From Macrostomum lignano (lineage: Eukaryota): DNA of 64,000 bases. Shown here one piece after another: positions 20,014 through 63,225 of the stretch (position 1 is the first letter of the stretch; every line of letters starts with the position of its first letter). A program made the position numbers and the translations under genes. Where the stretch lies: positions 1 to 64,000 of the forward strand of contig NIVC01003569.1 in the NCBI GenBank assembly GCA_002269645.1, written 5' to 3'. Under the pieces are notes generated by a model. The model ran no database searches and was not told where the DNA came from. It saw only the letters and a list, made by a program, of their open reading frames with translations.

Positions 20014-20291
20014 GCTTTATCCAAGTATTCTATACTATATAAGTTCTAGTTCATCCAAGTAGACTGTTGACATAAGCTTAGGCCACTTGTAGACTTGTCA
20101 TTGACAAGTGGGACCCTTCGATAGTGCTCAAGCTAAATCTGTGTTGTCTATGGCCAAAATAACGGCAAAAACGGCTTGACAAATTGTCACTTATCACTTA
20201 TCACTTGTTAAATTGTCATCCCTCCTCATGAAACGCTATAATTGTGAAATTTTACACTTGTCCCTTGTAAATTGTCAACTTGTCACTTGTA

Positions 20292-21921: not shown

Positions 21922-22097
21922 TACTTGCTTCATGAAATCGGCCCCTGATAAAGAGAGTATAAAGAGAGCTGTTTTAAAGAGAGCTGATAGTATGTCCCTT
22001 GCATTGAAATGTCTATGGCCCTTCCTACGTTTTTGGGTGTCGTAGAATGACTGCGAAATATTTTGTGCAAAAGCTTTAACCCTCAACAAACAGCGTG

Positions 22098-22844: not shown

Positions 22845-22862
22845 TTAGGGTTAGGGTTAGGG
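22845..22862 (+). repeat. (TTAGGG)3 telomeric run at the 5' junction of the Penelope element
   Basis: TTAGGGTTAGGGTTAGGG directly precedes the C-rich element. Confidence 0.9.
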
Positions 22863-25088
22863 CAAGAAATCCTGCCGGCCGAAGTCCGGTCCTCGCCGCT
22901 GCCCGACCTATGTGACCCGGAGACGGCCACATGGGAACGCGCGGCCAAGGTTCGGGTGACTGTCCTGGCCCTCGGCGCCTCTACCTGGTCAGACGAGAGC
23001 AGCCTGGACGACCACCTGTGCCGGGCCAATGCGATGCTGCCCCCGACCGAGGACTCATCCTGCTGCTCGTCGGGACGACTGAGGACCAGCTGGCGGAGAC
23101 CAAGTCTAAAGTCTCCCTACCTGTCTACCGGCGCTGGGTAAGTGCGGCCGTTCCCTCTGTCCCTAATATCCCCCCGCTCTTGTTCCTCTCATTAGGACTC
23201 ACTGGACAAACCTCGCTGCCAGGAGGGCCCCATAGGGCTCAACCAGAATTTGCTCGTTCTCCATCCCACCTTTTCACCTGACCCCCCGACCCTCTCTCTC
23301 TCCTTCAGAAGGGGCTAAATTTCGTCCCCACAAACAACAAAATCTTTCTCCCTAGACTTCACCAAGACACCATCGAGTTCACCCGCCGTCTTCAATGGGC
23401 TGAAAAAATCTCATCGCCCGAGCTCGGGCGCCCTCTCACCCCTCTGTGGTCCCTCTGCCAGATCCCCCCCCCCGCCCAGCCATTTCCCAAGCTACCCTGG
23501 ACTTCTGCGAGGAACTCCTTGAGGAGGCCGCGGAACGATCCGCCCTCAAGGCTCTCAGGGATGACCCCTCCATCATTATCAGGAACGCCGACAAAGGCGG
23601 CGCCATCGTAATCTCCCACACCAGGGATTACACCTTTGAAATCCTTTCTCAGCTTGGGGATAGGAATTTCTATTCCCCATCGCGGGCCCCATCTTTCCTG
23701 AGACCAAGGATCGCATCCAGGCCATTCTGTACATCTCAAACTCCAGGGGTATCTGTCAGCTAGACAGCATTCCTTCCTCTCCCCTCCGGATAACCCCGCC
23801 CCAGACACTTCTACACCCTCCCGAAGATCCACAAGGATCCCGCTTCTTGGCTCCTCCCTTCTCGGCTACCCAAGGGGCGCCCCATCGTCAGTGGCTGCTC
23901 CTCCGAATCCATTGGGGCTGAGAAGCTTAATTTTAGCTCATCGATCACTTCCTCAAACCTTTGGCCCAGGCCCAACCTTCCTTCATTAGGGACTCCATTC
24001 ACTTCAAGGCGCTCCTTGAAAATCTCCCAGTCTCCCCTTCCACTCTCCTGGCTACCATGGACGTGGCCTCCCTGTACACCATGATTGACACCTCTGATGG
24101 CCTCCGCGCCATCAAACACTTCTTTCAAACCAACCCTGACCCTCTCAGACCAGACTCTGACATCCTCCGCCTCCTCCAAATCTGCCTCGACCGCAACGAT
24201 TTCTGCTTTCGGGTCTCTGGTTCCTCCAATCAAAGGGCACTGCCATGGGCAAAATCTTCGCCCCCAACTATACCTGCCTTTTCATGAGCCACTGGGAACA
24301 AGCGGCGCTCAACACCGCCCTGTCCCACTCCATCTCCCCGGGCACCTTCCTCCGCTACATCGACGACATCTTCGTCACCCTGGATGGGCCCTCCTCCACG
24401 GCTCAGAAATTCCTGGACATCCTAAATGCCCAGGACCCCAACATCCAACTTTCTCTCACCGTCTCTTCTTCCTCCGTTGACTTCCTGGATCTCTCAGTCA
24501 AGATCTCGGACTCCTCGCTCCACACTTCTATCTACTCAAAACCCACTAGCTCACTTCTCCTGCTTCACATGGCTTCGGCTCACCCCAAACACACCTTCAA
24601 GGGGGTTCTCAAATCCAGATCTACGGGCTGCATGCCTCTGCGATTCCTACTCTGATTTTTCCTCTTTCTGCCGCACCCTCTGCCGCTCCCTCCACTCTGT
24701 CGGATACTCCTTCTCCTTCTTCAGCAACACCAAGGCCTCCGTCCTGGCCCAACTTGGCTGGCCTCAAACCATCCCACGTCCCATCCTCATCCCAAAAGGA
24801 TTCCAATCCTGCAACTCTGCCCGCTGCAGAACCTGCCCCCACGCCATCCCCAGGATCTCTTTTCAGGGCCCCTCCCCTGCCTCTGCTTTTCTCATCTCCC
24901 AATCTCTCTCCTGCGCCTCTTCCCACCTCATCTACGGCATTTCCTGCCTCCGCTGTCTTCCCTCCTCCAACCTCTACGTGGGCTGTACTACCAATACCCT
25001 GAGAGACCGTCTGAACGGCTACCGCTCGGACATTAGACTCAACAAGGACAAACCCAGAATTTTGTCCTATTGTTTTATTAGTAAATAA
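22863..25088 (+). mobile_element. Penelope-like retroelement (Neptune-like), RT plus GIY-YIG endonuclease, frameshifted and 3'-truncated
   Basis: LLQKGLNFVPT; IIIRNADKGGAIVI; YTLPKIHK; GRPIVSG; TMDVASLYT; GTAMGKIFAPNY; FLRYIDDIF; IYSKPT; Zn-finger-like CNSARCRTCPH; LIYGISCLRC..LYVGCTTNTLRDRL. Confidence 0.92.
23138..23195 (+). other. Candidate 58-nt spliceosomal intron inside the Penelope element
   Basis: GTAAGT donor, CCCTAAT branch-point-like motif (23161), polypyrimidine tract and TAG acceptor. Removal joins the upstream frame (..VYRRW) to DSLDKPRC..NLLVLHPTFSP at phase 0. Confidence 0.55.
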
Positions 25089-25512: not shown

Positions 25513-25751
25513 NNNNNNNNNNNNNNNNNNNNNNNNNNNNNNNNNNNNNNNNNNNNNNNNNNNNNNNNNNNNNNNNNNNNNNNNNNNNNNNNNNNNNNNN
25601 NNNNNNNNNNNNNNNNNNNNNNNNNNNNNNNNNNNNNNNNNNNNNNNNNNNNNNNNNNNNNNNNNNNNNNNNNNNNNNNNNNNNNNNNNNNNNNNNNNNN
25701 NNNNNNNNNNNNNNNNNNNNNNNNNNNNNNNNNNNNNNNNNNNNNNNNNNN
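25513..25751. other. Assembly gap (239 N)
   Basis: Run of N. Confidence 1.
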
Positions 25752-28700
25752 AACCCTAACCCTAACCCAACCCTAACCCTAACCCTAACCTAACCCTAAC
25801 CCTAACCCTAACCCTAACCCTAACCCTAACCCTAACCCTAACCCTAACCCTAACCCTAACCCTAACCCTAACCCTAACCCTAACCCTAACCCTAACCCTA
25901 ACCTAACCCTAACCCTTAACCCTAACCTAACCCTACCTAACCTAACCCTAACCCTAACCCTAACCCTAACCCTAACCCTAACCCTAACCCTAACCCTAAC
26001 CCTAACCTAACCCTAACCCTAACCCTAACCCTAACCCTAACCCTAACCCTAACCCTAACCCTAACCCTAACCCTAACCCTAACCCTAACCCTAACCCTAA
26101 CCCTAACCCTAACCCTAACCCTAACCCTAACCCTAACCCTAACCCTAACCTAACCTAACCCTAACCCTAACCCTAACCCTAACCCTAACCCTAACCCTAA
26201 CCCTAACCCTAACCCTAACCCTAACCCTAACCCTAACCCTAACCCTAACCCTAACCCTAACCTAACCCTAACCCTAACCCTAACCCTAACCCTAACCCTA
26301 ACCCTAACCCTAACCCTAACCCTAACCCTAACCCTAACCCTAACCCTAACCCTAACCCTAACCCTAACCCTAACCCTAACCCTAACCCTAACCCTAACCC
26401 TAACCCTAACCCTAACCCTAACCCTAACCCTAACCCTAACCCTAACCCTAACCCTAACCCTAACCCTAACCCTAACCCTAACCCTAACCCTAACCCTAAC
26501 CCTAACCCTAACCCTAACCCTAACCCTAACCCTAACCTAACCCTAACCCTAACCCTAACCCTAACCCTAACCCTAACCCTAACCCTAACCCTAACCCTAA
26601 CCCTAACCCTAACCCTAACCCTAACCCTAACCCTAACCCTAACCCTAACCCTAACCCTAACCCTAACCCTAACCCTAACCCTAACCCTAACCCTAACCCT
26701 AACCCTAACCCTAACCCTAACCCTAACCCTAACCCTAACCCTAACCCTAACCCTAACCCTAACCCTAACCCTAACCCTAACCCTAACCCTAACCCTAACC
26801 CTAACCCTAACCCTAACCCTAACCCTAACCCTAACCCTAACCCTAACCCTAACCCTAACCCTAACCCTAACCCTAACCCTAACCCTAACCCTAACCCTAA
26901 CCCTAACCCTAACCCTAACCCTAACCCTAACCCTAACCCTAACCCTAACCTAACCCTAACCCTAACCCTAACCCTAACCCTAACCCTAACCCTAACCCTA
27001 ACCCTAACCCTAACCCTAACCCTAACCCTAACCTAACCCTAACCCTAACCCTAACCCTAACCCTAACCCTAACCCTAACCCTAACCCTAACCCTAACCCT
27101 AACCCTAACCCTAACCCTAACCCTAACCCTAACCCTAACCCTAACCCTAACCCTAACCCTAACCCTAACCCTAACCCTAACCCTAACCCTAACCCTAACC
27201 CTAACCCTAACCCTAACCCTAACCCTAACCTAACCCTAACCCTAACCCTAACCCTAACCCTAACCCTAACCCTAACCCTAACCCTAACCCTAACCCTAAC
27301 CCTAACCCTAACCCTAACCCTAACCCTAACCCTAACCCTAACCCTAACCCTAACCCTAACCTAACCCTAACCCTAACCCTAACCCTAACCCTAACCTAAC
27401 CCTAACCCTAACCCTAACCCTAACCCTAACCCTAACCCTAACCCTAACCCTAACCCTAACCCTAACCCTAACCCTAACCCTAACCCTAACCCTAACCCTA
27501 ACCCTAACCCTAACCCTAACCCTAACCCTAACCCTAACCCTAACCCTAACCCTAACCCTAACCCTAACCCTAACCCTAACCCTAACCCTAACCTAACCCT
27601 AACCCTAACCCTAACCCTAACCCTAACCCTAACCCTAACCCTAACCCTAACCCTAACCCTAACCCTAACCCTAACCCTAACCCTAACCCTAACCCTAACC
27701 CTAACCCTAACCCTAACCCTAACCCTAACCCTAACCCTAACCCTAACCCTAACCCTAACCCTAACCCTAACCCTAACCCTAACCCTAACCCTAACCCTAA
27801 CCCTAACCTAACCCTAACCCTAACCCTAACCCTAACCCTAACCCTAACCCTAACCCTAACCCTAACCCTAACCCTAACCCTAACCCTAACCCTAACCCTA
27901 ACCCTAACCCTAACCCTAACCCTAACCCTAACCCTAACCCTAACCCTAACCCTAACCCTAACCCTAACCCTAACCCTAACCCTAACCCTAACCCTAACCC
28001 TAACCCTAACCCTAACCCTAACCCTAACCCTAACCCTAACCCTAACCCTAACCCTAACCCTAACCCTAACCCTAACCCTAACCCTAACCCTAACCCTAAC
28101 CCTAACCCTAACCCTAACCCTAACCCTAACCCTAACCCTAACCCTAACCCTAACCCTAACCCTAACCTAACCCTAACCCTAACCCTAACCCTAACCCTAA
28201 CCCTAACCCTAACCCTAACCCTAACCCTAACCCTAACCCTAACCCTAACCCTAACCCTAACCCTAACCCTAACCCTAACCCTAACCCTAACCCTAACCCT
28301 AACCCTAACCCTAACCCTAACCCTAACCCTAACCCTAACCCTAACCCTAACCCTAACCCTAACCCTAACCCTAACCCTAACCCTAACCCTAACCCTAACC
28401 CTAACCCTAACCCTAACCCTAACCCTAACCCTAACCCTAACCTAACCCTAACCCTAACCCTAACCTAACCCTAACCCTAACCCTAACCCTAACCCTAACC
28501 CTAACCCTAACCCTAACCCTAACCCTAACCCTAACCCTAACCCTAACCCTAACCCTAACCCTAACCCTAACCCTAACCCTAACCCTAACCCTAACCCTAA
28601 CCCTAACCCTAACCCTAACCCTAACCCTAACCCTAACCCTAACCCTAACCCTAACCCTAACCCTAACCCTAACCCTAACCCTAACCCTAACCCTAACCCT

Positions 28701-31700
28701 AACCCTAACCCTAACCCTAACCTAACCCTAACCCTAACCCTAACCCTAACCCTAACCCTAACCCTAACCCTAACCCTAACCCTAACCCTAACCCTAACCC
28801 TAACCCTAACCCTAACCCTAACCCTAACCCTAACCCTAACCCTAACCCTAACCCTAACCCTAACCCTAACCCTAACCCTAACCCTAACCCTAACCCTAAC
28901 CCTAACCCTAACCCTAACCCTAACCCTAACCCTAACCCTAACCTAACCCTAACCCTAACCCTAACCCTAACCCTAACCCTAACCCTAACCCTAACCCTAA
29001 CCCTAACCCTAACCCTAACCCTAACCCTAACCCTAACCCTAACCCTAACCCTAACCCTAACCCTAACCCTAACCCTAACCCTAACCCTAACCCTAACCCT
29101 AACCCTAACCCTAACCCTAACCCTAACCCTAACCCTAACCCTAACCCTAACCCTAACCCTAACCCTAACCCTAACCCTAACCCTAACCCTAACCCTAACC
29201 CTAACCCTAACCCTAACCCTAACCTAACCCTAACCCTAACCCTAACCCTAACCCTAACCCTAACCCTAACCCTAACCCTAACCCTAACCCTAACCCTAAC
29301 CCTAACCCTAACCCTAACCCTAACCCTAACCCTAACCCTAACCCTAACCCTAACCCTAACCCTAACCCTAACCCTAACCTAACCCTAACCCTAACCCTAA
29401 CCCTAACCCTAACCCTAACCCTAACCCTAACCCTAACCCTAACCCTAACCCTAACCCTAACCCTAACCCTAACCCTAACCCTAACCCTAACCCTAACCCT
29501 AACCCTAACCCTAACCCTAACCCTAACCCTAACCCTAACCCTAACCCTAACCCTAACCCTAACCCTAACCCTAACCCTAACCCTAACCCTAACCCTAACC
29601 CTAACCCTAACCCTAACCCTAACCCTAACCCTAACCCTAACCCTAACCCTAACCCTAACCCTAACCCTAACCCTAACCCTAACCCTAACCTAACCCTAAC
29701 CCTAACCCTAACCCTAACCCTAACCCTAACCCTAACCCTAACCCTAACCCTAACCCTAACCCTAACCCTAACCCTAACCCTAACCCTAACCCTAACCCTA
29801 ACCCTAACCCTAACCCTAACCCTAACCCTAACCCTAACCCTAACCCTAACCCTAACCCTAACCCTAACCCTAACCCTAACCCTAACCCTAACCCTAACCC
29901 TAACCCTAACCCTAACCCTAACCCTAACCCTAACCCTAACCCTAACCCTAACCCTAACCCTAACCCTAACCCTAACCCTAACCCTAACCCTAACCCTAAC
30001 CCTAACCCTAACCCTAACCCTAACCCTAACCCTAACCCTAACCCTAACCCTAACCCTAACCCTAACCCTAACCCTAACCCTAACCCTAACCCTAACCCTA
30101 ACCCTAACCCTAACCCTAACCCTAACCCTAACCCTAACCCTAACCCTAACCCTAACCCTAACCCTAACCCTAACCCTAACCCTAACCCTAACCCTAACCC
30201 TAACCCTAACCCTAACCCTAACCCTAACCCTAACCCTAACCCTAACCCTAACCCTAACCCTAACCCTAACCCTAACCCTAACCCTAACCCTAACCCTAAC
30301 CCTAACCCTAACCCTAACCCTAACCCTAACCCTAACCCTAACCCTAACCTAACCCTAACCCTAACCCTAACCCTAACCCTAACCCTAACCCTAACCCTAA
30401 CCCTAACCCTAACCCTAACCCTAACCCTAACCCTAACCCTAACCCTAACCCTAACCCTAACCCTAACCCTAACCCTAACCCTAACCCTAACCCTAACCCT
30501 AACCCTAACCCTAACCCTAACCCTAACCCTAACCCTAACCCTAACCCTAACCCTAACCCTAACCCTAACCCTAACCCTAACCCTAACCCTAACCCTAACC
30601 CTAACCCTAACCCTAACCCTAACCCTAACCCTAACCCTAACCCTAACCCTAACCCTAACCCTAACCCTAACCCTAACCCTAACCCTAACCCTAACCCTAA
30701 CCCTAACCCTAACCCTAACCCTAACCCTAACCCTAACCCTAACCCTAACCCTAACCCTAACCCTAACCCTAACCCTAACCCTAACCCTAACCCTAACCCT
30801 AACCCTAACCCTAACCCTAACCCTAACCCTAACCCTAACCCTAACCCTAACCCTAACCCTAACCCTAACCCTAACCCTAACCCTAACCCTAACCCTAACC
30901 CTAACCCTAACCCTAACCCTAACCCTAACCCTAACCCTAACCCTAACCCTAACCCTAACCCTAACCCTAACCCTAACCCTAACCCTAACCCTAACCCTAA
31001 CCCTAACCCTAACCCTAACCCTAACCCTAACCCTAACCCTAACCCTAACCCTAACCCTAACCCTAACCCTAACCCTAACCCTAACCCTAACCCTAACCCT
31101 AACCCTAACCCTAACCCTAACCCTAACCCTAACCCTAACCCTAACCCTAACCCTAACCCTAACCCTAACCCTAACCCTAACCCTAACCCTAACCCTAACC
31201 CTAACCCTAACCCTAACCCTAACCCTAACCCTAACCCTAACCCTAACCCTAACCCTAACCCTAACCCTAACCCTAACCCTAACCCTAACCCTAACCCTAA
31301 CCCTAACCCTAACCCTAACCCTAACCCTAACCCTAACCCTAACCCTAACCCTAACCCTAACCCTAACCCTAACCCTAACCCTAACCCTAACCCTAACCCT
31401 AACCCTAACCCTAACCCTAACCTAACCCTAACCCTAACCCTAACCCTAACCCTAACCCTAACCCTAACCCTAACCCTAACCCTAACCCTAACCCTAACCC
31501 TAACCCTAACCCTAACCCTAACCCTAACCCTAACCCTAACCCTAACCCTAACCCTAACCCTAACCCTAACCCTAACCCTAACCCTAACCCTAACCCTAAC
31601 CCTAACCCTAACCCTAACCCTAACCCTAACCCTAACCCTAACCCTAACCCTAACCCTAACCCTAACCCTAACCCTAACCCTAACCCTAACCCTAACCCTA

Positions 31701-33547
31701 ACCCTAACCCTAACCCTAACCCTAACCCTAACCCTAACCCTAACCCTAACCCTAACCCTAACCCTAACCCTAACCCTAACCCTAACCCTAACCCTAACCC
31801 TAACCCTAACCCTAACCCTAACCCTAACCCTAACCCTAACCCTAACCCTAACCCTAACCCTAACCCTAACCCTAACCCTAACCCTAACCCTAACCCTAAC
31901 CCTAACCCTAACCCTAACCCTAACCCTAACCCTAACCCTAACCCTAACCCTAACCCTAACCCTAACCCTAACCCTAACCCTAACCCTAACCCTAACCCTA
32001 ACCCTAACCCTAACCCTAACCCTAACCCTAACCCTAACCCTAACCCTAACCCTAACCCTAACCCTAACCCTAACCCTAACCCTAACCCTAACCCTAACCC
32101 TAACCCTAACCCTAACCCTAACCCTAACCCTAACCCTAACCCTAACCCTAACCCTAACCCTAACCCTAACCCTAACCCTAACCCTAACCCTAACCCTAAC
32201 CCTAACCCTAACCCTAACCCTAACCCTAACCCTAACCCTAACCCTAACCCTAACCCTAACCCTAACCCTAACCCTAACCCTAACCCTAACCCTAACCCTA
32301 ACCCTAACCCTAACCCTAACCCTAACCCTAACCCTAACCCTAACCCTAACCCTAACCCTAACCCTAACCCTAACCCTAACCCTAACCCTAACCCTAACCC
32401 TAACCCTAACCCTAACCCTAACCCTAACCCTAACCCTAACCCTAACCCTAACCCTAACCCTAACCCTAACCCTAACCCTAACCCTAACCCTAACCCTAAC
32501 CCTAACCCTAACCCTAACCCTAACCCTAACCCTAACCCTAACCCTAACCCTAACCCTAACCCTAACCCTAACCCTAACCCTAACCCTAACCCTAACCCTA
32601 ACCCTAACCCTAACCCTAACCCTAACCCTAACCCTAACCCTAACCCTAACCCTAACCCTAACCCTAACCCTAACCCTAACCCTAACCCTAACCCTAACCC
32701 TAACCCTAACCCTAACCCTAACCCTAACCCTAACCCTAACCCTAACCCTAACCCTAACCCTAACCCTAACCCTAACCCTAACCCTAACCCTAACCCTAAC
32801 CCTAACCCTAACCCTAACCCTAACCCTAACCCTAACCCTAACCCTAACCCTAACCCTAACCCTAACCCTAACCCTAACCCTAACCCTAACCCTAACCCTA
32901 ACCCTAACCCTAACCCTAACCCTAACCCTAACCCTAACCCTAACCCTAACCCTAACCCTAACCCTAACCCTAACCCTAACCCTAACCCTAACCCTAACCC
33001 TAACCCTAACCCTAACCCTAACCCTAACCCTAACCCTAACCCTAACCCTAACCCTAACCCTAACCCTAACCCTAACCCTAACCCTAACCCTAACCCTAAC
33101 CCTAACCCTAACCCTAACCCTAACCCTAACCCTAACCCTAACCCTAACCCTAACCCTAACCCTAACCCTAACCCTAACCCTAACCCTAACCCTAACCCTA
33201 ACCCTAACCCTAACCCTAACCCTAACCCTAACCCTAACCCTAACCCTAACCCTAACCCTAACCCTAACCCTAACCCTAACCCTAACCCTAACCCTAACCC
33301 TAACCCTAACCCTAACCCTAACCCTAACCCTAACCCTAACCCTAACCCTAACCCTAACCCTAACCCTAACCCTAACCCTAACCCTAACCCTAACCCTAAC
33401 CCTAACCCTAACCCTAACCCTAACCCTAACCCTAACCCTAACCCTAACCCTAACCCTAACCCTAACCCTAACCCTAACCCTAACCCTAACCCTAACCCTA
33501 ACCCTAACCCTAACCCTAACCCTAACCCTAACCCTAACCCTAACCCT
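25752..33547 (+). repeat. Telomeric (CCCTAA)n array, ~7.8 kb
   Basis: About 1300 units of the canonical metazoan TTAGGG repeat, C-rich on the plus strand (left-arm orientation). Confidence 0.99.
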
Positions 33548-34161
33548 TTTAGTCCCTACCCCAAATTTCATTGTCTCCAATTTCCAATTCTTAAATCCCT
33601 CTCTCTCCCTCTCCTATCTCACCAATGCACACACCCTTTAGCCCCTCTAATTCCCTCTCCCCGCCGCATACCACGTGCGCCCATCCTCGCCCTGTATTTC
33701 CTCTTACTCTCGCTAATTCCCACCCCCAGTTTTTCCTTCTTGAGTCCCTGCCTCCACTGCGCCACACTCTCACTGGCACGTCGCTCCTATCTCTCTCATA
33801 CTTTCTCTCTCCGGCTCCCATTCCATCCATTCTTTCTCTCTCCCACCCTCTCCCCCAGCCACTCACGACCCCCAATTTTTCTCCTCTGCGTTCTCATTTG
33901 CTCCTTGTACCCCACGCGCGCTCCCATTCGCTGTAACCTCCCCTCAGATTTTATATTTATTAAATATACCAGACTCAACTTAGATGTCTCTACTAACTAG
34001 CTCCTGATGAAGGTTAATCTTAACCGAAACGCGTCGAGCACCAAATCCATTTCTAGCTTCTGTCTTTTAGCCTTCCTTATTTTAAGTGGTTCAGCGGCCG
34101 ACTGGTCTGACGGATCAGTAACCCTTGTTCTAACCCTAACCCTAACCCTAACCCTAACCCT
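33548..34161 (+). mobile_element. 5'-truncated Penelope-type 3' end/pseudo-LTR with hammerhead ribozyme and (CCCTAA)5 tail
   Basis: C/T-rich tract with the same strand bias as the PLE at 22863-25088, a canonical HHR at 34000-34039, and a terminal TAACCCTTGTTCTAACCC(TAACCC)n. Confidence 0.75.
34000..34039 (+). ncRNA. Minimal type I hammerhead ribozyme
   Basis: Stem I GCTC/GAGC, CTGATGA core (34004-34010), stem II GGTTA/TAACC, GAAA, short palindromic stem III AC-GC-GT, and GTC cleavage triplet ending at 34035. Confidence 0.88.
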
Positions 34162-34502
34162 GATTATTTCGAAGATGCTATGGGTGGATGTCAGTGGATT
34201 ATGTCAGTGTCAGTGAGCATAACAGGTGTTGGTGGACATTTGTTATGCTCTGATTCTGTCAGGGATACTATGGATGGATTTAATGGGATTATGGAGGACG
34301 TTTTGTGAGCGAGTGCGACCCCCCTTTTTTCCGATTCTGTCAGGGATAATATGGATGGATTTAATGGGATTATGTTCCAAGTTTTCGGAGCAAGGGCGAG
34401 CCCCCTTTTTTCTGATTCTGTTGGGGATAATATGGATGGATTTAATGGGATTATGGAGGACGTGAAAAAATTTGTCCCAGAAGCCCCCTCATGCATTCTA
34501 CT
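34162..34502 (-). mobile_element. Polinton/Maverick TIR stub (outer ~340 bp of one end)
   Basis: Reverse complement of 62797-63115, including the terminus (..CCCCCTCATGCATTCTACT) and the GATTCTGTCAGGGATAATATGGATGGATTTAATGGG repeats. Confidence 0.75.
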
Positions 34503-34621
34503 GCGTCGAGCACCAAATCCCTTTTTAGCTACTGTCTTTTTAGCCTTCCTTATTTTAAGTGTTCAGCGGCCGACTGGTCTGACGGATCAGTAACCCTTGT
34601 CCTAACCCTAACCCTAACCCT
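34503..34621 (+). mobile_element. Second pseudo-LTR 3' end (ribozyme interrupted) with (CCCTAA)3 tail
   Basis: Near-copy of 34031-34150, starting at GCGTCGAGCACC in the middle of HHR stem III and ending in CCTAACCCTAACCCTAACCC. Confidence 0.85.
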
Positions 34622-34709
34622 TGGCGAGACCTAGCTGGTCTTGAGAGTTGGTCTTGAGATGTGAATGTTTTATGATTTTTTAAAAGAGGGTAGTTTTGCA
34701 TTTTCCCCT

Positions 34710-35075
34710 TATTGCACTGTGACAGCTGATTTTATATGTAAGGGCATTGTGTATGAATATGTTATAGTGACGTTAATCTAAGAGGATTTAGGTTGTTTTA
34801 TGGAAGGGGCTGGCTGACTGGTTTTTCCCCCTTATATAGTTAGATAAACAGGTGTAGGTATTGCATTGTGATAGCTGATTTTAGATTTAAGCGCATTAGG
34901 TTTAAATAGATTTTAGATGTTGATCTAAGGGGGATTAGGTTGTTTTATGGAAGGGGGTGGTTGACTAGTTTTTCCTGTTAGATCAGCGGCTGTTGGTATT
35001 GCATGGTGATGGTTGATTTTAGATGTAAGTGCATTGTGTATGAATAGATCTTAGTAGATGTTGATCTAAGGGGGA
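34710..35075. repeat. Diverged ~150-bp tandem repeat, ~3 copies
   Basis: TTGCA.TGTGA.AGCTGATTTTA.ATGTAAG.GCATT..GATCTAAG.GG..AGGTTGTTTTATGGAAGGGG recurs at ~34712, 34861 and 34998. Confidence 0.75.
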
Positions 35076-36111
35076 AAGGCTATATTTTTTGACAATCGGC
35101 AGGAGGAGTTCCACTCGTTTGAATATAATAATCTACCGTTAATTGCACTGACGCTGGTCACGATTTGATAAAGATTTGCGTTCAGTGTACACTTGCTTCA
35201 GTCTATAGTGTCTGAGAGCTAACCCTATCTGCCATAGCCAGCCCGGGGTCGTTTAGCCCGTGAGTTTCTTGCCTAAACAGTGCGCAATCAACAAATGCAC
35301 GGGTACATTGCCTAGCTATCTTGCGAGCCGAAACACGCGGACTGCCCCACGCACTCTATTGTGGCAGTTTACTGTTGGATGCTTGGGGCAGGGGTGTCTG
35401 CAGTTTACAATAAGTCGGAGTGGTTGGTTGTCTATTTGAGGAATGAGTGTGCAAGTTAAAGATGAAACTGAGGTATGCAGCCAGAAAGACTGCTTGCTTA
35501 GCTCGCATCTAGTGTCCTCATTGAGTTCTGAACCGTTGCTAGCATATCCGGGAGGAAATACAGCTGCTACTGCTATAACCAAGGTATTTATAAATTTCAA
35601 TATATGAGTGTAACAATTTGCAAGATTACATTTTCTTACTACATGTAGTAGGATTACTATTACTATTAAAAGTCCTGGGGACTTTTTGAGTTGATAGTGT
35701 AGATACTCGTAGATGTGGTCTTAGCGATCTAAGGCTGCAAATGGATCCGAATCTCGCTATTTCGGCATTTCGCACTGTCGAGATCGCTACGAGCTACATG
35801 TACGCACATGTATGATCTTTTCATTTAACATTTGATCTTTTGGAATTTATTGTAATGCTTGCACTATACAGCTCGTAGTTCACGTACATGTACGAGCTAT
35901 GCTGAAGATATCCTCGATCATTTCTACAAAACATTGCTCCTTGCAACCAGTTGTGTTCCTAAAAACATGCAAAACACGATTCGATTAAAACAGTGCACGT
36001 GATGTATACCCTTGTGATTTCCAAATTAGAAAGGCAAATAATAATGCACTTGTGGAGACAAACCCCTTTAAGTGTTAACAACGCCTCGCATAATTTTTTT
36101 CAGATTTTGAA

Positions 36112-37383
36112 ATGGCCGATGAGAACGAGTACGAGACTGATTGTGTAATTGTCCGGACTGAGAACATTGCTCTGCAGGACCATAGGCCTCCTTCAGACTG
36201 TGGTGCCAGAAAACAGCCAGATTGTCATGAGAATGTTGGTGCACAGACAGAGGGGAAAACTGAGAGGCAGCAAGTAGGCCCCACAATAGCTCCGGAATTG
36301 GAAAAGTGCAGCGACACCATCGTAGTGACCAGGCAACACCTAGAGGCGATGAGGCGTTACTACATGGCAGTAAAGAGTGCCTACTTTAATTACAGCACTC
36401 TTGATGCTGATTCGGCCCTAGTGTTACAAAAGTTGTTTGAACAGACTCCAGAAGTTCTCAGCACATCAAACAAACAGGGCTACAGTCCTATTGAGTCGGC
36501 ACTATCACAGAAAAAGTGGACAGCAGCCACGCACCTGCTGGATTTGGCCGCTCGCAAGAATCCCAGGGCCTTGCAGCATCGCACAGCCACTGGGGATGAT
36601 GCCCTGATGCTGGCGGTGACTGGCGGGGGAGAGAACGTCGTGGAAAAACTCATCAACCTGGGTTGCGGCAGTTTTGCTTGCATGCACTACAATGCGAGCG
36701 GTAGAAATGTACTACACATGTGCGCCCTCGGTTCCAGTGACACAATCCTTCATAAGATCCTTGCTTCGCTAAGCGATCTGCTGAAAAGTCAGCAGCTTGC
36801 GCCAAAATGCGTCACTGCGGCTCTGTGCACCAGCGACTGCGACGGTTGCACGCCGCTACATTACATGGCCCGCGAAAATCGAGTCAGCATGCAGAAGGCT
36901 GTGCACCAGTTCGCCCAGCAAAACCTCCTGCGGTTCGATTGGGATGTCCGCCAAACCACTGGCGACCGCCTGACGCCCCTTGCGATGGCCGCCAGAGTAA
37001 ATGCGGTGGACGCCTGCCGCTTTCTGCTGCAGCAAGGCCTGGTCGGCATCGACCTGAATGATCACATTGACCTGTGGCTTCAGGTGACGCTCAGTGACTC
37101 AGCCAGATCCTTGCTTGGCAGGCATTGCAAGCTGCTGGAACCAATTAATGACCTGCCACCAGAGAACCTTCAAAAATTGCAGGATGGACTGCAGCAGAAA
37201 GGACTTACAGACGAGTTCTTATTGCAATTGCGGACTCACTGGCCTGACCTGCCCCAGCTTCCAACCGTAAGCACCGTGTTGCTTGTGAGTCAGAACTACT
37301 GCAGCTCTTGTCGTCTGGTGGCCTGGGACATACTGAAGAGCCTGGGCGCTGCTGATCTTGCCGAGTTATTGGAGGGGCGATGA
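36112..37383 (+). CDS. Intronless ankyrin-repeat protein with C-terminal death-domain-like region (423 aa)
   Basis: Ankyrin-like units GYSPIESAL, GDDALMLAV, GRNVLHMCA, GCTPLHYMA, LTPLAMAA. The C-terminal W..PTVSTVL..LKSLGAADLAELL pattern resembles death-domain helices 5-6. Confidence 0.75.
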   Translation: MADENEYETDCVIVRTENIALQDHRPPSDCGARKQPDCHENVGAQTEGKTERQQVGPTIAPELEKCSDTIVVTRQHLEAMRRYYMAVKSAYFNYSTLDADSALVLQKLFEQTPEVLSTSNKQGYSPIESALSQKKWTAATHLLDLAARKNPRALQHRTATGDDALMLAVTGGGENVVEKLINLGCGSFACMHYNASGRNVLHMCALGSSDTILHKILASLSDLLKSQQLAPKCVTAALCTSDCDGCTPLHYMARENRVSMQKAVHQFAQQNLLRFDWDVRQTTGDRLTPLAMAARVNAVDACRFLLQQGLVGIDLNDHIDLWLQVTLSDSARSLLGRHCKLLEPINDLPPENLQKLQDGLQQKGLTDEFLLQLRTHWPDLPQLPTVSTVLLVSQNYCSSCRLVAWDILKSLGAADLAELLEGR

Positions 37384-39670
37384 ACATCCGTTTGCGAATT
37401 CGATAATTGACTGAATTGATGATTGAACTGTCTGTAAAAGTTTTGAAGTTATGCGTGTGAAAACCCCAAGTTCTATTAATATTTTAACGTTTCTTTAATC
37501 AACATTAATTAAAAATTAATTAAGCAAATTTTTTATTTAGAATTTGAACTAACTTATCAATTTACTTGTGTTTTATTCGGCGCATGCACACGAGTGTGGT
37601 TGTCGACCGTGGGCATGTTTTCCAGCTTGTATGCACAAAAACCACAGAAATTTGTTATTGTCTCAATGCGAGCAAGCTTCAGTAAAGTAATAAACTTGGA
37701 TTGATTTCAGACAAAATTCACTGTCATGCAGTGCAATAAACAGTTTTTTAACACCAGTTAAAAATCAATGCAACAATAGATGTCAGCTTTTTTCGTACAG
37801 CCGACTTAGTATAGGCAATTAAGCAAAGCTGCCTTTGCTGCCGGTCGTTCATGGACCTCTGGAAGCACTGACGGGAGCCTATAAATCCCTTAAGTCCCTT
37901 AATCAATCACAGATTAATAAATTAGAAAGACACAACATGGCGCAAATCATGAATACTTTTGAGGGCTGATTATTTAAAACAGTCCCGCACAGCAATCCGA
38001 CGTTCCCGAGGTCTATATCGAGGTCGTCACGTCAATGACAAATAGGCTCGTATGTGCTTTTACATTACATCGACGTGTATAACGACGTCATACGTCAGCT
38101 GAACGTCGGCGTAATGTAAAAGGTGCATGTTTTTCATCGACATCGAGAGACGTCGAGAACATCGGCCTACATGTACGAGTATCTTGGCTATAGATGTGCA
38201 TTAATTTGTAGAATGCGCAAATTAGTAAAATATATTAATATTGTAATTTTAAACTTTACAACTTTACAAAGCCGAGGCCAGCTACGGACTCTAGCTAGAC
38301 GGACACTCTCGAATTAGTAAGTTGACGCAGTGCATCCTGGCCTGCTGAGACCCCGATTCGCGCCCTCTCTCGTAGCAACTAAATGTCAGCGCATTTTTGT
38401 TCTTTTCTACGGCGTCGAAATTAATACTCAGCTCTAAAAGGCTTTGGTACGAGTAGTGTATCTTGCTGTATGATTAACATATGATTCTTCGTTGCTCCAG
38501 TGGAGAAGACTTCGTCAGCGCAATTCGACATTTATGTTCCACGTGGAGTAACGTGTACAATCTGCGCTTTCCTTCTAAACCAATTAAGGGACGCTTCTTG
38601 CTGTGCTTGTGTCTCTCAGGAAGAAGGAATCCATCTCTAATTCATCAAATTATTCGTGGCTCGCTGGGAAGCTCCAGACCTCTGGCACTGAGACCCCGGT
38701 TCGTCATACATGGCTGCTTGTTTCCTTTGGTCTTCCTTGGCGCATTTTCGATCCGCTCCGATCGTCGCCAGACGCCAGTTGATGTTTTAAATAAGGAATT
38801 TTTTATAGATAAGTGTCCAAGTACATGTAATATAGCTGGAGAAGTACATGTAGATGCTCCCGGCTGGGCCAGTTCTTTCAGCAGAGAGGGGCTAATATGG
38901 TATATGCCATACATTAGTACATGTACGTCAGTAAGCCACGTACGTACAGTACGTTGCAATACATAACATGTAAGTATATGAACATTATGAAATGCATAGA
39001 ATGCCGTCATATTTGCGAAGGGTGGCCGCCAATATTTGTTCTAATGTAGCCTATAAGAATTCCTGTTCCCACACGTATGCTCTTCAGAGTTTTAAATAAA
39101 AAGGACAGACAGTAGTGTAGAGGCGCTCGCTTTACTCTTTTCTCTCACCCGCCTCTGCGGGCCCAAAGGAGCGATGGCCATTGCCTCGGCTGGGCTGTAG
39201 AACTTCAGCAGCCTACTGGGCCCCGAAATACCGTGCTTTGAATGTTCAATCTTTGCTATCCGACGTGAGCAGAAGGTGCAGGCAGGACGCAAAATCCTAC
39301 CTGTTACAAAGATACATGTACATGCGCGTACAATTTCGTATGATACCTTATTTGTTTTTTTTCAAAAATTACATGAATGCCGCGCGTTTCTCGCAAGGGG
39401 CGTTTATATAAGTGGTCCAGAAGCTCAATTTTCAAAAGGAAATTTCTGCAAGAAAATAAAGCGGAACTTAAATTGCCGTTTGAATAATAATAATCACGAA
39501 ATATTACAAGAAAAGAATTCCATTTGCGAAATCACCTTTTATTTCTATTACTCCTTTTACTTTTACTCTTGTAAATGTCGAAAAATCGTTCTTTTATATA
39601 CAAGTAGCTACAAGGAAATGAAATTTAGTTACAATTCTATAATGTAATTTGTCTACACTAGGCCACTCTC

Positions 39671-39903
<233 letters not shown>

Positions 39904-41645
39904 CCGGCATGACGTTCAGACTCTAACCAAATTGATTTGTCTCAACATACTATAACAAACCGTATAAAACATTTCTCCATTAATTTTTTATTTACCTCTG
40001 AGGCATATTTCTTCTGACAAAAGTAAATAAGTATTTTGTCACTAGAGTCTTAAGACCTATTTCAACGAATTATACATTTTGTGTTTCCTGCTGCTATCCA
40101 CTAATATTCAAGTATTCATAAAGGAAAAATTTAAGAGGTAGATTATGCGATTCTACACGATTCAGTACGCGATTTGCAGAGATTGCCCTTTTAGTGTAGG
40201 CAAATCACAAAAATTGTGTTCACTGTAGCTAGGCCTCTGACTATTAGTATATAAGTACATTATATATATATATATATGCTCGTATAGTATAGTGACAGTC
40301 GCAGCTAGAATTTTTAGGTGGGGTCACCCGACCCAGTTGTAATAAAAATAGCTGCATGTAATAATAATAAAATGATGCGAAATAAAAAACTACATTTCGA
40401 GCCTGTACTGTGCCCCTTGGCTACACCACCTATGATATAGTTAATGATCTTTGGTCTACTTTTCTTTAACTGTTGATGAAATTATTGTATTGGATTTGAA
40501 TCAGTGCAAATGAATTCATATATACTATATGTCTGAGTTTGAAAGAATGAATAGCCTTATCAATCCATTAACATTAGTAACTCGTATTTGAATTATTTAA
40601 ATTATAAAAACTAGATCCAGTTTTAATAGAATTATTCAAAACTTTGTTCCTATAAGGTTTGTTTAGGGTACTAAGCTCAAATTCAAGCTTCATTTCTATG
40701 TAGCATAGGGAACCACCAGCACCAGTGCATGGGAATATAAATAACTACTAAGATACTATACATTGATTAGGATATAATATTAGATATTATTATCGAATAA
40801 CTATTTATTCTTCATTACTAATAGTTAATAAGTTAATAATATACATACAGACAACTCATTTTTAGTATACAGGATGATTCATCTATTGATGATAAATACA
40901 TAGTAAAATTTGTATACTATGTATAGTAATAGTAATATTTGTATATTATATGTGCTATAATAATACAAGAGCCTCAAAGGTGTATATAAAATGCAATGAA
41001 TGCCCCAGTTTGTATTATAACCTATTTTATAACCATAATACATATAACCATATAATTTCCTCTCTATAATTATTTATTTGCTCCATCTATAATTAGTGAC
41101 ATTTAAGTTAGAAATTATAGATATTTTTATACTTACTATATTTTTGTATCTATTTGGTATTTATTTTTTAATTAATTTCCTATTACTTACTGGTATTGAT
41201 TTCAATTTTAAAGATTATTTAAATGGATAAAAATATTTACTTTTCTAAAATGAAAAACAATTTTCTTTGTACTGAGGTTAGGCCTATTCTTTTATTGAGT
41301 TAAATTTGCAGCTTTGCTTATAAGCTTAAATTTTTATTCATATAATCCTGTTCTCGTTATTGTCTATTATAATTGTTTTCATAATTGTTTTTACAATTCT
41401 AGTTTTATAACCAATATCAATTTTATCAATTTTATAACCAATTGCCAGATCTATTTAGCAAAAAATAAATTTTCAGTACTCAAAAATGATAGTATATAAG
41501 TATAAATCTGCTTAAAAAAATTTTTCTGTGTGAATCATTTCATATAAATGTTGGTAAAAAAGTTTCTATATTGTTGGTACATAATTTTTTTAAATGCATG
41601 TTACCATGTTTTCTCTATTAATAGTTTGATTGATTGGCAGAAGTT

Positions 41646-44600
41646 ATGTTGAAGTGTTTTGAAAAAATACTAACATTCATTGGTCTGAAAAGACCTATGT
41701 ATGAAGAGTTCAGAACTATCTATGTCAACCACAAGCAGCTACAATCAAAGGATCAGTTTCATGAGGAAAAATATTCTTCTAACCATGTTGTTACTTCCCG
41801 TTACACAGCACTCAACTTTTTGATAAAAAATCTACTGGAACAGTTCAGCCGCGTTGCTAACTTTTATTTTCTGATTATTTCTGTTGTTCAGCTTGGCATT
41901 GATTCACCAGTTAGCCCCGCATCTTCATTTTTGCCTCTGGTCTGCGTTATGGGCGCCACAGCCATCAAGCAGGCATATGAAGACATCTTGCGACACAGGG
42001 CAGATGACAAAGTTAATAATGCGCTTGTTAAAGTCATTAGAGATGAAGCTTTGGTTGACGTGAAGGCTTTTCAAATCCGAGTTGGAGATGTCGTTCGAAT
42101 TCACAAAGATGAAAGTTTTCCTTGCGATCTTGTACTGCTTTCATCATCAGAAGATAGTGGTAAGTTTTCTGACTTAAAAAATAAGCAAAACGCTAGATAA
42201 AGTATGCTCGTACGTTGCCTTATACAAGCTACATATAGCTACTGTATTTACCCATACTAGCTCGTATCTAAAACATTAGTCGGTGAATTTGAAAATAAAC
42301 TAAAACGGATAGAGATAGGATAATATTTATTAAGTATTTTTCATTTTTTAGCGACCAAAAACAAAAAAGCATACTTTTCTCATACGAGTATTTTGTCACG
42401 CTTCACTTTTTAGGGGAATGCAACATAACGACGGCCAATTTGGACGGAGAGACAAATCTAAAAACAGTATACTCTGTTGAACCAACCAAACCAATGCGAT
42501 CTGCCTCCAGCATCTGTAAAAGCCTTCGTGCTCGAATCACATGCGAACAGCCAACCACCGACCTGTACAAATTTAAGGGTAACATGGTTGTCAGGCACAA
42601 GTCTAGACCATATGATAAGGTGACACTAAGTGTGAAAAATTTGCTACTTCGAGGCGCAGTGCTGCGGAACACAGAATACGCCATTGGAGTGGCAGTTTAC
42701 ACTGGACAGGAAACCAAAATGCAGCTTAATTCCCAGCACGTTCGACCAAAGAAATCTGTAATTGAGCGGCGACTTGACAAATTCCTTCTGTTTTTTATGA
42801 TAGCCCTGCTGATTGAGTCAATATTTTGCACTGCGATGAAATGGGGATACGCCACTTTGGACGGCACTGTCACAGGGGCATGGTACGTTTCTGCTGAAAC
42901 CGCAACGCCCTGGAGAGTTATCCAAGATTTATTGGGCTTCATAGTTTTGTTTAACTACTTGATTCCGATCTCACTGTATGTGACAATTGAGCTACAAAAG
43001 TTTATCGGCTCTATTTTCTTCGGGTTTGACTTGGATATGTACTTTGAAGACCCCGAAACTGGAGAAAAACTCCGTGCAAAGGCGAACACATCTGATCTGA
43101 ATGAAGAACTGGGTCAAGTGCAGTATCTATTCTCAGATAAGACTGGAACATTGACAGAAAATAAAATGACATTCAGGAAATGCTCCATAGGCAAGCGCAC
43201 GTTCTGCGATGACAACGGTGAATTATGGGAGACAGAAGGCTGTGGTGGGCGCAAGCTGAGTCGTCGAGAGACTCTGGATGGTCAAGAACTTTTGTTTTTT
43301 ACAATTCTAGCGCTTTGCCACACTATACGAGTAGAGCGGCCCAAGTCTTTTGACAGGGACTCGGCGGCATTAGCTCCGAATGATCGCAGGTACACGGCGT
43401 CCGAAGCGGAAGTCTACACGTACCAGGCAAGTTCGCCGGATGAGAAAGCATTCGCGGAAGCAGCTCGAAACTATGGAGTAATATTTCATGGCACTGAAAG
43501 TGGTGTCAGCATCCTTAGCGTGACTAGTGACGGCGAAGAGGTTATTCATCGGTATCGAATTCTGCATGTACTTGAGTTCGATTCGGATCGCAAGTGCATG
43601 TCTGTTATACTGCAGCGGTCCAATGGGACCTACTGGTTACTGACTAAAGGAGCTGAGAGCTCTATGCTAGAGAAGTGCTCGACTGGAGATCGGGACTCAG
43701 TTGTGCAATACTCTGGTGAATTGGCCCTTGAAGGCCTTCGAGTTTTGGTCATAGCTCACAAAGAGCTAACGGAAGAGGAGTATCGTCAGATGAGTTTACA
43801 GTTGCTCAGTGCGGAGCAAGACGTTGCCAACAGAGAAGAAAGACTAATTGAAGCGTATAAGTGAGTAATATCAGATGAAATGTATTGCGATTTATTCTTA
43901 AGCTCATTTGTTCTTTTGTCAAAACGCTCAACTTCTATTATAAAACTATTTCTGCAAGTTCTCTACTTAAACTTTAAAACATCTATCCTATCTTATCAGG
44001 TCAGTGGAGTGCAATCTTGAAGCTGTGGGCTTGACTGCCATAGAAGATGAACTACAGTCTGGTGTGTGCGAGACCATTACCGCTCTACGTGACGCAGGTA
44101 TTCAAGTTTGGGTGCTCACTGGAGACAAGCGTGAGACAGCGGAAAACATAAGCTTATCTGCCGGGCACTTTACCGAGTCAATGCAACGCATCCGCATCAT
44201 CGACCAGCAGTCAGCTGAGGGATGCCGTGAGAGTTTGCGTTGTGGCCTTGAAGAGATTGAAACAGGTGGCTCCCCACTTTCAGTTCAATATTGTGTTGTA
44301 GTTGATGGCCAATCATTACAGTTTCTTGTGGCCAACGAGTATTCTGAACTAAAGGACTCATTCCTTGAACTCTGTCGCAGAACTTCCGCAGTCTTGTGCT
44401 GCCGCTGCACTCCATTGCAAAAAGCAAGAGTTGTTTCCATGGTTAGAAATGGAATAAAGCCAGAGCCAACCACTTGTGCCATCGGTGACGGCGCGAACGA
44501 TGTTTCTATGATTCGCGAGGCTCATGTTGGCATTGGAATCTTCGGCAAGGAAGGCCGTGCTGCCGCTCTTAATTCGGACTATTGCTTTGCTAAGTTTAGA

Positions 44601-45419
44601 TTTTCTCGCAACGCTCTCCTGTTCCACGGACATCTCTACTATGTCCGTCTTGCAGTTCTTGTCTTGTTTTTCTTCTACAAGAATGTTGCCTTTATTACTG
44701 CGGAGCTCTACTACGCGTTTTTCTCAGCTTTTACCGCTCAGTCAGTTTACGACACATTGTTCCTGACCATCTACAATATGACTATGACGGCACTACCCGT
44801 GCTGCTATATGGGCTTTTTGAGCAACATTTACCGCGACACCGGCTAGAGTCAGAGCCAAGCCTGTATAGGAACATCGCGCAGAACAGAAAACTTTGGTGG
44901 AGAGAACTGGGCGGCTGGTGCACAATTGGTCTGTGGCATTCCGTTTGTTGTTTTTTCGGAGTTGCTGCCGTGTTCTTAGTTAATGATTGGGTCGGCACCA
45001 ATGGATTCGTTTTTGACGTTTACGCTTTTGGAACTGTAGTAGTGTATTGTGTGCTAGCCTGCGTTACAGCACGAATTCTAATTGTGACATTCAGTTTTAA
45101 TGTGCCTGCTCTAATCGGCTTGCTGGTAACAGCTATTGGATTCGTCCTAGTTTTGTGCATCTACAGTGTATCAACCGTGACCCTTCTGTCAAACCATCTC
45201 ACCTTTTTATGGGCTTATTTTGATATAAGCCTTCAACCAATTTCCTGGCTTCTGCTTCTGTGTGTCTCAGTGCTGGCTCTGACCCCCGACATCATATTGC
45301 GTAGCATGCAAGACATTCGCACTGACCGGTTGCTTAGGAGGCGTGGAACTGCTGGAGAGCTACCGGTACGTTTCAAAAATATTTTATCTAGTCGTTTGTT
45401 TTACCTTTGTGGCAACTGA
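41646..45419 (+). CDS. ATP11: P4-type ATPase phospholipid flippase, ATP11-like; exons 41646-42159, 42414-43860, 44000-45419
   Basis: RTIYV N-terminus, YTALNF..EQFSRVANFYF, LDGETNLK, IPISLYVTIE, SDKTGTLTENKM, ASSPDEKA, TGDKRETA, IGDGANDVSMI. GT-AG introns with consistent phases give 1126 aa. A further donor at 45366 could add a 3' exon. Confidence 0.95.
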
Positions 45420-45869
45420 CATCATTGCTTGGGGACTGCTTAAGAAATAATATACACTCATCAAAATGTTACAATTTCCACCCCAAAACTAGTGGTCAAC
45501 TTTTCTCAGATCTTAGCCCTCAAGTGACGCAATTCACACCATGCCCGCGGTTGTCGTCTTAACTGTTGGTGATGCAGGCCCTAGCCAGGGAAGCCTCTTT
45601 GTTCGCTTCGCTCACCAGGAAGCGACACTCACATGGCCCCTCCCCACCTCCTCTACAAGTTTAGTCTCGTTTTGGGAACTTGGGAAGCAAAGAATTTTTG
45701 TCCTTCGTTTACTGTACACTGAATACTCATATCTTTTCTATGTTATGCCTATATCTTCTCGTGCAGGATATCATTTAGGCAGCAAAAAACAACTGATATC
45801 AACTCACTCTGAGCAATTCTCTGATTTTCTAAACTCTAATTTTTTAATCGAACATTTGCATAATACATC

Positions 45870-51966: not shown

Positions 51967-51971
51967 ACTTC

Positions 51972-62796: not shown

Positions 62797-63225
62797 AGTA
62801 GAATGCATGAGGGGGCTTTTGGGACAAATTTTTAACGTCCTCCATAATCCCTTTAAATCCATCCATATTATCCCCGACAGAATCAGAAAAAAGGCGGGGG
62901 TCGCACTTGCTCCGAAAACTTCGGAAATAATCCCATTAAATCCATCCATATTATCCCTGAATCAGAAAAAAAGAGGGTCGCACTTGCACCGAAAACTTCG
63001 AACATAATCCTCCTAAATCCATCCATTTTATCCCTGACAGAATCAAAGCATAGCAGGTGTCCTACATAATCCACTGACATCCACCCACAGTATCTTCGAA
63101 ACAACCAGAAAATAATCTACATTCTTCTCCCCACATTCAATTCGCAACGCGAAACCAGATCCCTAAGACTTTAAATCATTAGCGCAGGGTCCTTACCCTT
63201 TGAAAAATCTAAATTTTCTCTAAAA

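Follow-up and report, generated by a model that had tools for sequence, protein, structure and literature searches.

A telomere-tailed Penelope-like family with a GIY-YIG domain and truncated copies at a chromosome end of Macrostomum lignano

Penelope-like elements (PLEs) that lack an endonuclease carry a hammerhead ribozyme followed by reverse-complement telomeric repeats, and their 5'-truncated copies are capped by the telomere, as described in the available text of three papers (PMC8557442, PMC6431247, PMC3846280). In these texts, as far as available, the telomeric tail is described only for endonuclease-less PLEs; the combination of ribozyme and tail is said to be confined to endonuclease-less terminal PLEs (PMC6431247), and endonuclease-bearing PLEs are presented as interstitial (PMC8557442). 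A stretch of 64,000 nt from contig NIVC01003569.1 of Macrostomum lignano (the window) raises the question whether this division always holds. Two 3' ends of the telomere-tailed kind are stacked beside a long (CCCTAA)n array, and a fragment encoding a reverse transcriptase (RT) and a GIY-YIG domain lies on the other side of that array (Table 1).

The chromosome end and its stacked insertions

The preliminary description, made from the letters of the window alone, had read the region next to the array as a truncated C-rich tract, a hammerhead and a tail of five CCCTAA units, with the same 3' end recurring behind a Polinton stub. The sequence is as described. The C/T-rich tract of copy 1 overlaps the telomere by 4 nt (CCCT) at its truncation point, and copy 2 retains only the last 3' strand of the hammerhead and abuts the intact Polinton terminus.

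Table 1. Coordinates of the features discussed, counted from the first letter of the window
Feature	Position	Strand	Remarks
Inverted (TTAGGG)3 stub at the 5' junction of the RT-GIY-YIG piece	22845..22862	+	Added de novo; missing from 5 empty-site homologs
Truncated, frameshifted RT + GIY-YIG piece, interstitial locus	22862..25055	+	92.8% identical to C538; 58-nt GT..AG likely retained intron
Assembly gap of 239 N	25513..25751	.	Directly left of the telomere array
Telomere array (CCCTAA)n	25752..33547	+	7.8 kb, about 1304 units; caps copy 1; homolog C3378 telomeric on the same side
Copy 1, 5'-truncated PLE 3' UTR	33544..34161	+	Identity 95% with the copy in C2492 and 84% with C538 (581 nt)
Minimal type I hammerhead, predicted	34000..34039	+	Predicted cut after 34035
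Hairpin of 8 bp, predicted	34101..34119	+	Tail follows after about 10 nt; hairpin also present in copy 2 (34573-34591)
Tail 1, 5.3 CCCTAA units	34130..34161	+	At break inside Polinton TIR, 2-nt overlap
Stub, outer 343 nt of Polinton terminal inverted repeat (TIR)	34160..34502	-	Intact terminus 34502, broken at 34160
Copy 2, last ~120 nt of an independent insertion	34503..34621	+	Cut in ribozyme stem III by the Polinton
Tail 2, about 3.5 CCCTAA units	34601..34621	+	3' end of copy 2

The stub is assigned to a Polinton-type TIR by its sequence. A search of the genome gave 639 first-look candidates, 40 of which were scored, and its terminus coincides with the end of 10 of 11 other Polinton TIR copies. 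In contig C298 an inverted pair of such TIRs, 16.5 kb apart, frames PolB2, rve, Pox_A32 and double-jelly-roll matches (Pfam matches on 4 of the 12 ORFs scanned). Polintons produce a 6-bp target-site duplication upon insertion; the other end of the present insertion is lost. No telomeric repeat is found at the break position in six intact Polinton TIR copies. The stub is intact at one end and broken at the other; thus the Polinton cut copy 2 when it inserted, and copy 1 became attached to the break inside the Polinton. The two copies differ at 5 positions in about 99 nt, which marks them as separate insertions of different sub-variants; copy 2 shows only 2 differences from two interstitial copies. 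Of the two successive terminal retrotranspositions that had been suggested, the separateness of the insertions is borne out, while a terminal, telomerase-capped state of copy 2, which was cut by the Polinton, finds no support.

Telomere repeats have been added inside Polinton sequence at three places, in C543 near 416159 (L131), at window 34160 and in C3397 near 13442, two of them in the TIR and one internal; in C543 a truncated TIR directly borders the 12.5 kb telomere. Polintons may be break-prone or break-making. Two more Polinton TIR pieces lie in this subtelomere (window 62797-63108 and C3569 64191-64350), with Polinton ORF fragments beyond.

That the right half of the window is a true chromosome end, as had been supposed, is corroborated by the homologous contig C3378, which is about 98.7% identical to window 35080-54931. 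It starts with a telomere array extending up to base 8371 (2917-3999 not read), joined at window 35080 with a 3-nt overlap. Therefore one end was healed at two places in two homologs, in C3378 1.5 kb further in than in the window. As to the left half, its three homologs (C1522, C695 and C1600) continue into non-telomeric DNA, and the 12.5 kb telomere array of C543 likewise ends at an N gap (428646-428901). For these reasons the join of the two halves at the 239-N gap is probably a scaffolding misjoin, and the nearness of the RT-GIY-YIG piece to the telomere probably a product of it. Both in the window and at C543:428646-428901, a gap of about 250 N stands between a telomere array and the DNA to which it is joined. 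The join in the window places PLE ORF and 3' UTR in transcript order, and one may speculate about a transcript-guided scaffolder.

It is very improbable that the stack itself is an assembly artefact or a subtelomeric duplication instead of the product of retrotransposition. An N gap does adjoin the array, the genome contains duplicated loci, and contigs of sequencing runs X1-X3 differ from the window at three bases in the ribozyme (none at an invariant core position). Against this, flanks and truncation points differ between copies, copies 1 and 2 represent different sub-variants, C3378 confirms the end, and contigs from two studies (runs X2 and X3) span the join of copy 2 to its flank (34564-34760, 0 differences).

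Long telomere arrays abut this PLE family in 2 of the 6 cases examined, or 1 of 5 when the window, which had been chosen for it, is left aside; the arrays at C139, C3378, C543 and C1288 have no abutting copy. Several other features of the region were observed. At window 36094-37383, 42299-45419 and 47129-51967 there are an ankyrin-repeat gene and a P4-ATPase gene, both less than 12 kb from the telomere, and a Gypsy-type element (LTRs of 277 nt) that C3378 lacks. Another element, 1.6 kb long (window 20289-21924), has perfect inverted arms of 534 nt and an internal repeat of 19 nt; neither C695 nor C1600 contains it.

Structure and relatives of the parent family

The hammerhead predicted in copy 1 consists of stem I, the CUGAUGA core (34004-34010), one unpaired A, stem II (34012-34025), GAAA, a 2-bp palindromic stem III and GUC (34033-34035). 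With its conserved core, short helix I, unpaired base before helix II and palindromic helix III it corresponds to the minimal hammerhead (min-HHR) of PLEs as described in the available text of PMC4209133, and we regard it as a candidate ribozyme of this type. The full descriptor matched once in the non-telomeric part of the window and in none of 200 Markov-1 resamples, and 98.1% of the hammerhead cells pair in seven distinct copies, without significant covariation (76 of 500 shuffles). An Rfam search of the window returned no hammerhead, neither at the gathering threshold nor at E ≤ 10, the MFE fold of the region is not a hammerhead, and the hammerheads of C538 and C1688 have core changes. Between ribozyme and tail lie about 100 nt and the hairpin, whose 22-mer is exact in all nine genomic matches beside a tail; the hairpin is invariant and shows no covariation, so its pairing is a prediction from the fold. 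In contig C1288 an inverted pair of hammerheads from another family (near 9994 on the minus and 12855 on the plus strand) lies 2-5 kb from an 8.1 kb telomere.

Extension of the copies in the 5' direction led to RT and GIY-YIG motifs in C538, a near-full-length copy in which ORF, ribozyme and tail occur in one stretch. The order is AlkB, a likely intron, RT, a Zn-finger linker, GIY-YIG, a degenerate CCCTAA tract directly after the end of the ORF and, after a 1.1 kb UTR, ribozyme, hairpin and CCCTAA tail. C1688 provides a second link of ORF and ribozyme, with other flanks. The linkage in C538 supports the PLE identity proposed earlier, and also bears out the suggestion that the parent is the GIY-YIG family seen at 22863-25088, since C538 shares 92.8% identity with window 22862-25055 over 2265 nt and has the same hammerhead and tail. 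The preliminary description had overlooked the AlkB domain, the internal telomere-like tract, the insertions into interstitial tracts and the inverted TTAGGG stubs. Contigs of two runs from one study, RNA or DNA, contain a variant that is about 93-94% alike across the RT-endonuclease region and ends short of the ribozyme. A 21-nt repeat unit at window 12633-12962 resembles the sequence after the internal telomere-like tract (83-90% over 48 nt).

The N-terminal domain of C538 matches the AlkB family (PF13532, E 3.6e-26), with ALKBH3 as best solved match (E 2.1e-20), and is predicted to be an m1A/m3C-type demethylase of the element's RNA or cDNA. The RT matches RVT_1 with E 1.2e-6, just under the curated cut-off, and is followed by a C-x4-C-x2-C linker. 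In the GIY-YIG domain the IYG..YVG motif, Arg and Glu align with PF01541-positive homologs at 55-58% identity, and a CxxC inside the motif together with conserved downstream His residues provides the CCHH pattern. By this structure, RT followed by a C-terminal GIY-YIG, the family is an endonuclease-containing PLE. The endonuclease region of C538 is split by frameshifts and its pieces gave no direct match to Pfam GIY-YIG, and for this reason endonuclease activity is at most predicted; no uninterrupted ORF occurs in the assembly, every assembled endonuclease region or ORF being broken.

A GT..AG segment of 56-58 nt is present in four contigs (two loci), with a GTGAG variant in C1688; the 57-nt segment of C538 would join the reading frames if spliced, and no spliced joint was seen in the run contigs examined. 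Direct pseudo-LTR pairs were not seen; all copies lack the true 5' end, and the inverted pieces are only (TTAGGG)3-7 stubs (two loci). The GC skew of the ORF (-0.41, against -0.07 to -0.15 in three other families) fits a telomeric life; G4 motifs are not enriched on the cDNA strand (1 versus 0, 0 and 0).

Two candidates were discarded. The AlkB ORF at window 17169-18242 is not the 5' part of the 22862 piece, having no DNA match to C538, and a 'CAAG' likeness of the 22845 stub to the 3' end of the element proved to be the element's own truncated 5' junction. Further AlkB-family ORFs (positions: window 17169-18242, L136:4615-5865, L134:1314-3524) precede a LINE-like ORF in C1167 and make up ORF1 in the (CT)n PLE family, so that several retroelement types in this genome carry AlkB.

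The latter, sister family is 51% identical and has an AlkB ORF and a hammerhead. None of its 29 loci contains a telomeric run of even two units, and 22 of its 23 3' ends have a pyrimidine tail of the (CT)n type. Two more PLE families, each represented by one copy, end in (ATCT)n and (CT)n. As these three related families end in (CT)n or (ATCT)n, the telomere-tailed family likely derives from a Neptune-like PLE with a microsatellite tail, which then changed to the telomere repeat. The overlap of ORF1 and ORF2 in the sister family contains, shortly ahead of the ORF1 stop, the heptamer TTTAAAC (L067 near 1065, L070 near 1075, on the strand of the element). This is a likely site of -1 frameshifting, at the place of the likely intron in the telomere-tailed family.

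In a midpoint-rooted tree of 115 RT cores, the telomere-tailed family forms a clade (support 0.985) with the (CT)n sister family and five database proteins (P0001-P0005) that are 54-63% identical to it. The tree included no named Neptune, Nematis, Coprina or Athena references, and the placement of the family with Neptune/Nematis is by structural features. An AlkB-RT-endonuclease fusion was not found among four longer homologs, and a search from the AlkB side gave one unrelated match, both being weak tests.

Insertion sites and proposed mechanism

Searches of the genome gave at least 10 matches to the 3' region, at least 9 exact matches to the 22-mer beside the tail, at least 5 to the RT-endonuclease DNA and at least 2 strong ones to the AlkB part. 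The homologs collapse to eight events at seven loci, i.e. a low-copy family in 764 Mb: copy 1; copy 2; C2492; C538; C1688; C1432/C363; C3397/C2415/C3282; and window 22862-25055 with C1522, C695 and C1600. Three events are at chromosome ends, two lie in pre-existing interstitial CCCTAA tracts, two have inverted TTAGGG stubs and one is plain. A CCCTAA tail of about 3-7 units followed by unrelated DNA is present on all six events with a 3' end (9 of 9 genomic 3' ends). The preliminary description had proposed to count copies at ends, and had named mostly interstitial copies without tails as an observation against it; five of the eight events are indeed interstitial, yet every event with a 3' end has the tail. 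The GIY-YIG parent that it had suggested holds, and the family is not confined to ends.

The C2492 copy abuts 4.2 kb of TTAGGG repeats reaching the end of the contig, joined exactly at its internal tract, and like copy 1 it is a 5'-truncated end capped by telomeric repeats. The two differ in flank and truncation point and so are separate retrotranspositions. Empty sites could be read for four of the six 3' junctions. In three (C2492, copy 1 and C3397) the empty site has no telomeric tract and the overlap is 2-4 nt; to judge from these comparisons, the tails were added de novo. In the fourth, the 3' junction of C538 is inside the CCCTAA tract of a common host repeat, a tract present in six of seven copies compared. 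The 5' junction of C1688 lies inside a CCCTAA tract of a second host repeat. The inverted stubs, (TTAGGG)7 in C3397 and (TTAGGG)3-6 in the left piece of the window, are absent from the empty sites. No target-site duplication is readable at either interstitial-tract insertion, the other junction being lost in each, and no empty site was found for C1432/C363 or for copy 2. The possibility that C3397 is an end-to-end chromosome fusion was rejected, as both its flanks are colinear pieces of one Polinton. Short CCCTAA tracts are common in the genome (1540 pattern matches); many among the 100 matches listed of these belong to at least two abundant host repeats with an internal (CCCTAA)4-5 tract (L142-L147, L148, L151, L155, L158).

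We consider it fairly probable that this is a low-copy, GIY-YIG-bearing PLE whose RNA likely ends in CCCUAA and likely primes reverse transcription on any TTAGGG-like DNA 3' end. On the simplest reading the RNA, like that of the relatives, would end in a simple repeat that serves target-primed reverse transcription, the repeat having changed to CCCUAA. Where an end is uncapped or has just broken, the tail would anneal through 2-4 nt, the RT would copy the RNA outward as the G-rich strand, and after an early stop telomerase would cap the new end from a seed, either a chance CCCT (copy 1) or the internal tract of the element (C2492). For internal insertion the endonuclease would probably nick the G-rich strand of interstitial TTAGGG tracts, comparable to the apparent action of the relatives at (AG)n in the same genome; at two-sided breaks the other end would also gain TTAGGG repeats before joining. 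Applied to the window, copy 2 would have attached at 34621, a Polinton would have inserted into it, a break would have occurred inside the Polinton TIR, and copy 1 would have attached there and been capped by telomerase. Priming, nicking, capping and the order of events are inferred from the junctions. Several observations count against this mechanism: the assembled ORFs are all broken, neither interstitial-tract insertion has a readable target-site duplication, five of the eight events are interstitial, only a minority of the long arrays examined abut the family, short CCCTAA tracts are common in the genome, G4 motifs are not enriched, and the covariation of the hammerhead is not significant. 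Moreover, the RT of a Poseidon PLE starts internally in vitro without homology, with ribozyme cleavage dispensable, according to the available text of PMC11167929.

The same junctions could be read in other ways. The endonuclease may be vestigial or unused, all insertions having occurred in Athena fashion on free ends, with the interstitial copies representing healed breaks that were later rejoined or fused. Three of the four testable tails are indeed at non-telomeric breaks with 2-4 nt overlap, no target-site duplication is seen, every assembled endonuclease is broken, and tracts of three or more TTAGGG units promote breaks in a fungus, as stated in the available text of PMC7367193. We nevertheless regard this reading as unlikely, given that the endonuclease motifs are conserved with homologs at 55-58% identity, that the flanks of C3397 are colinear parts of one Polinton, and that the 5' junction of C1688 keeps the left half of the host repeat and the tract in register, as for internal insertion.

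Somewhat more doubtful is the converse possibility that the element makes ends, integrating at arbitrary breaks; if no second joint forms, the G-rich cDNA or the internal tract would be healed by telomerase, at the cost of the distal arm. The exact joining of the C2492 telomere at the internal tract, the empty sites devoid of telomeric repeats and the G-rich cDNA would agree with it. Two independent copies 470 nt apart at one end, in a family of eight events in 764 Mb, argue against it, and random loss of an arm would rarely be viable. Moreover, the same end was healed without the element in C3378, so the end in the window would already have been unstable.

Returning to tail priming as the preferred mechanism, the inverted stubs invite one further idea, which must be considered a long shot: the PLE RT would act as a primitive telomerase, using the stretch from hairpin to tail as a bounded template, copying to the base of the hairpin, slipping back and adding TTAGGG. 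Both stubs would agree with it. The final six bases of the C3397 flank, GGACAA, are complementary to the RNA immediately before the tail, and the sequence added to them follows on in register; the final four at window 22845, AGGA, pair likewise, for the AATCC variant. The chances of these pairings are about 4^-6 and 4^-4, respectively, as post hoc values that take no account of the choice among variants and registers. The insert of C3397 has the variant that would give a different third base, which counts against this reading, and the stubs are more simply explained by host telomerase or tail priming. If it were true, an endonuclease-bearing PLE capable of repeat addition would be a living intermediate between Neptune, Coprina/Athena and telomerase.

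Comparison with known systems and significance

The geometry likened to that of Athena in the preliminary description is supported by hammerhead and tail on 9 of 9 genomic 3' ends and by the capped truncations of copy 1 and C2492. Athena, Coprina and Terminons share hammerhead, telomere-complementary 3' repeats, telomere-capped 5' truncation and polarity with the new family, as far as their available descriptions go. Unlike them, it has a C-terminal GIY-YIG in the RT ORF and an AlkB domain, separates ribozyme and tail by about 100 nt and a hairpin, and enters interstitial tracts; their lack of an endonuclease and their confinement to ends do not extend to it, as only three of eight events are at ends. 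Athena is the only PLE among the telomeric retroelements listed in the available text of PMC10088271.

With Neptune/Nematis, for which the available text of PMC8557442 defines a CX2-5CxxC linker, the family has in common the RT, this linker, GIY-YIG with CCHH, a minimal hammerhead, a likely retained intron, an inverted piece at the 5' junction and simple-repeat targets. It differs by its telomere-repeat tail, by copies under telomeres, by the N-terminal AlkB and in that no pseudo-LTR pair was seen. Neither telomeres nor AlkB are mentioned in the available text of a paper on fish Neptune (PMC12602865).

MoTeR, SART/TRAS, Tx1_Acar and GilM/GilT are also endonuclease-bearing retroelements with telomere-like terminal sequence (PMC7367193 and PMC10088271, available text), and in the former source truncated copies healed by telomerase on 1-4 nt seeds and internal relics are described as well. 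MoTeR can be seen as a functional analogue (PMC7367193, in the part available). These elements are of LINE type, their endonucleases belong to the REL or AP kind, and their insertions lie inside telomere arrays; the new family is a GIY-YIG-bearing PLE, and its terminal copies are attached immediately to break points in non-telomeric DNA. An AlkB-family 2OG-Fe(II) oxygenase is also carried by orchid Ty3/Gypsy retrotransposons (available text of PMC9289625); those are LTR elements with an ALKBH5-like m6A demethylase, whereas the PLE AlkB is closest to ALKBH3/2 among solved structures.

Our literature search, covering part of the field, found no endonuclease-bearing telomere-tailed PLE and no AlkB-bearing PLE. 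Within this scope the family is a new combination of GIY-YIG, predicted ribozyme and telomere-complementary tail, features assigned to separate PLE groups in the available literature. A second feature for which that search gave no precedent is AlkB, carried here by two PLE families. By means of its tail the family likely inserts both at broken chromosome ends and within internal telomere-like repeats. What chiefly sets its close relatives in this genome apart is the simple repeat at the end of their RNA, and this would offer a simple way for microsatellite targeting to turn into telomere attachment, the endonuclease being lost later. The RTs of PLEs are the sister group of telomerase, and so a PLE that heals TTAGGG ends beside host telomerase would bear on the origins of telomerase.
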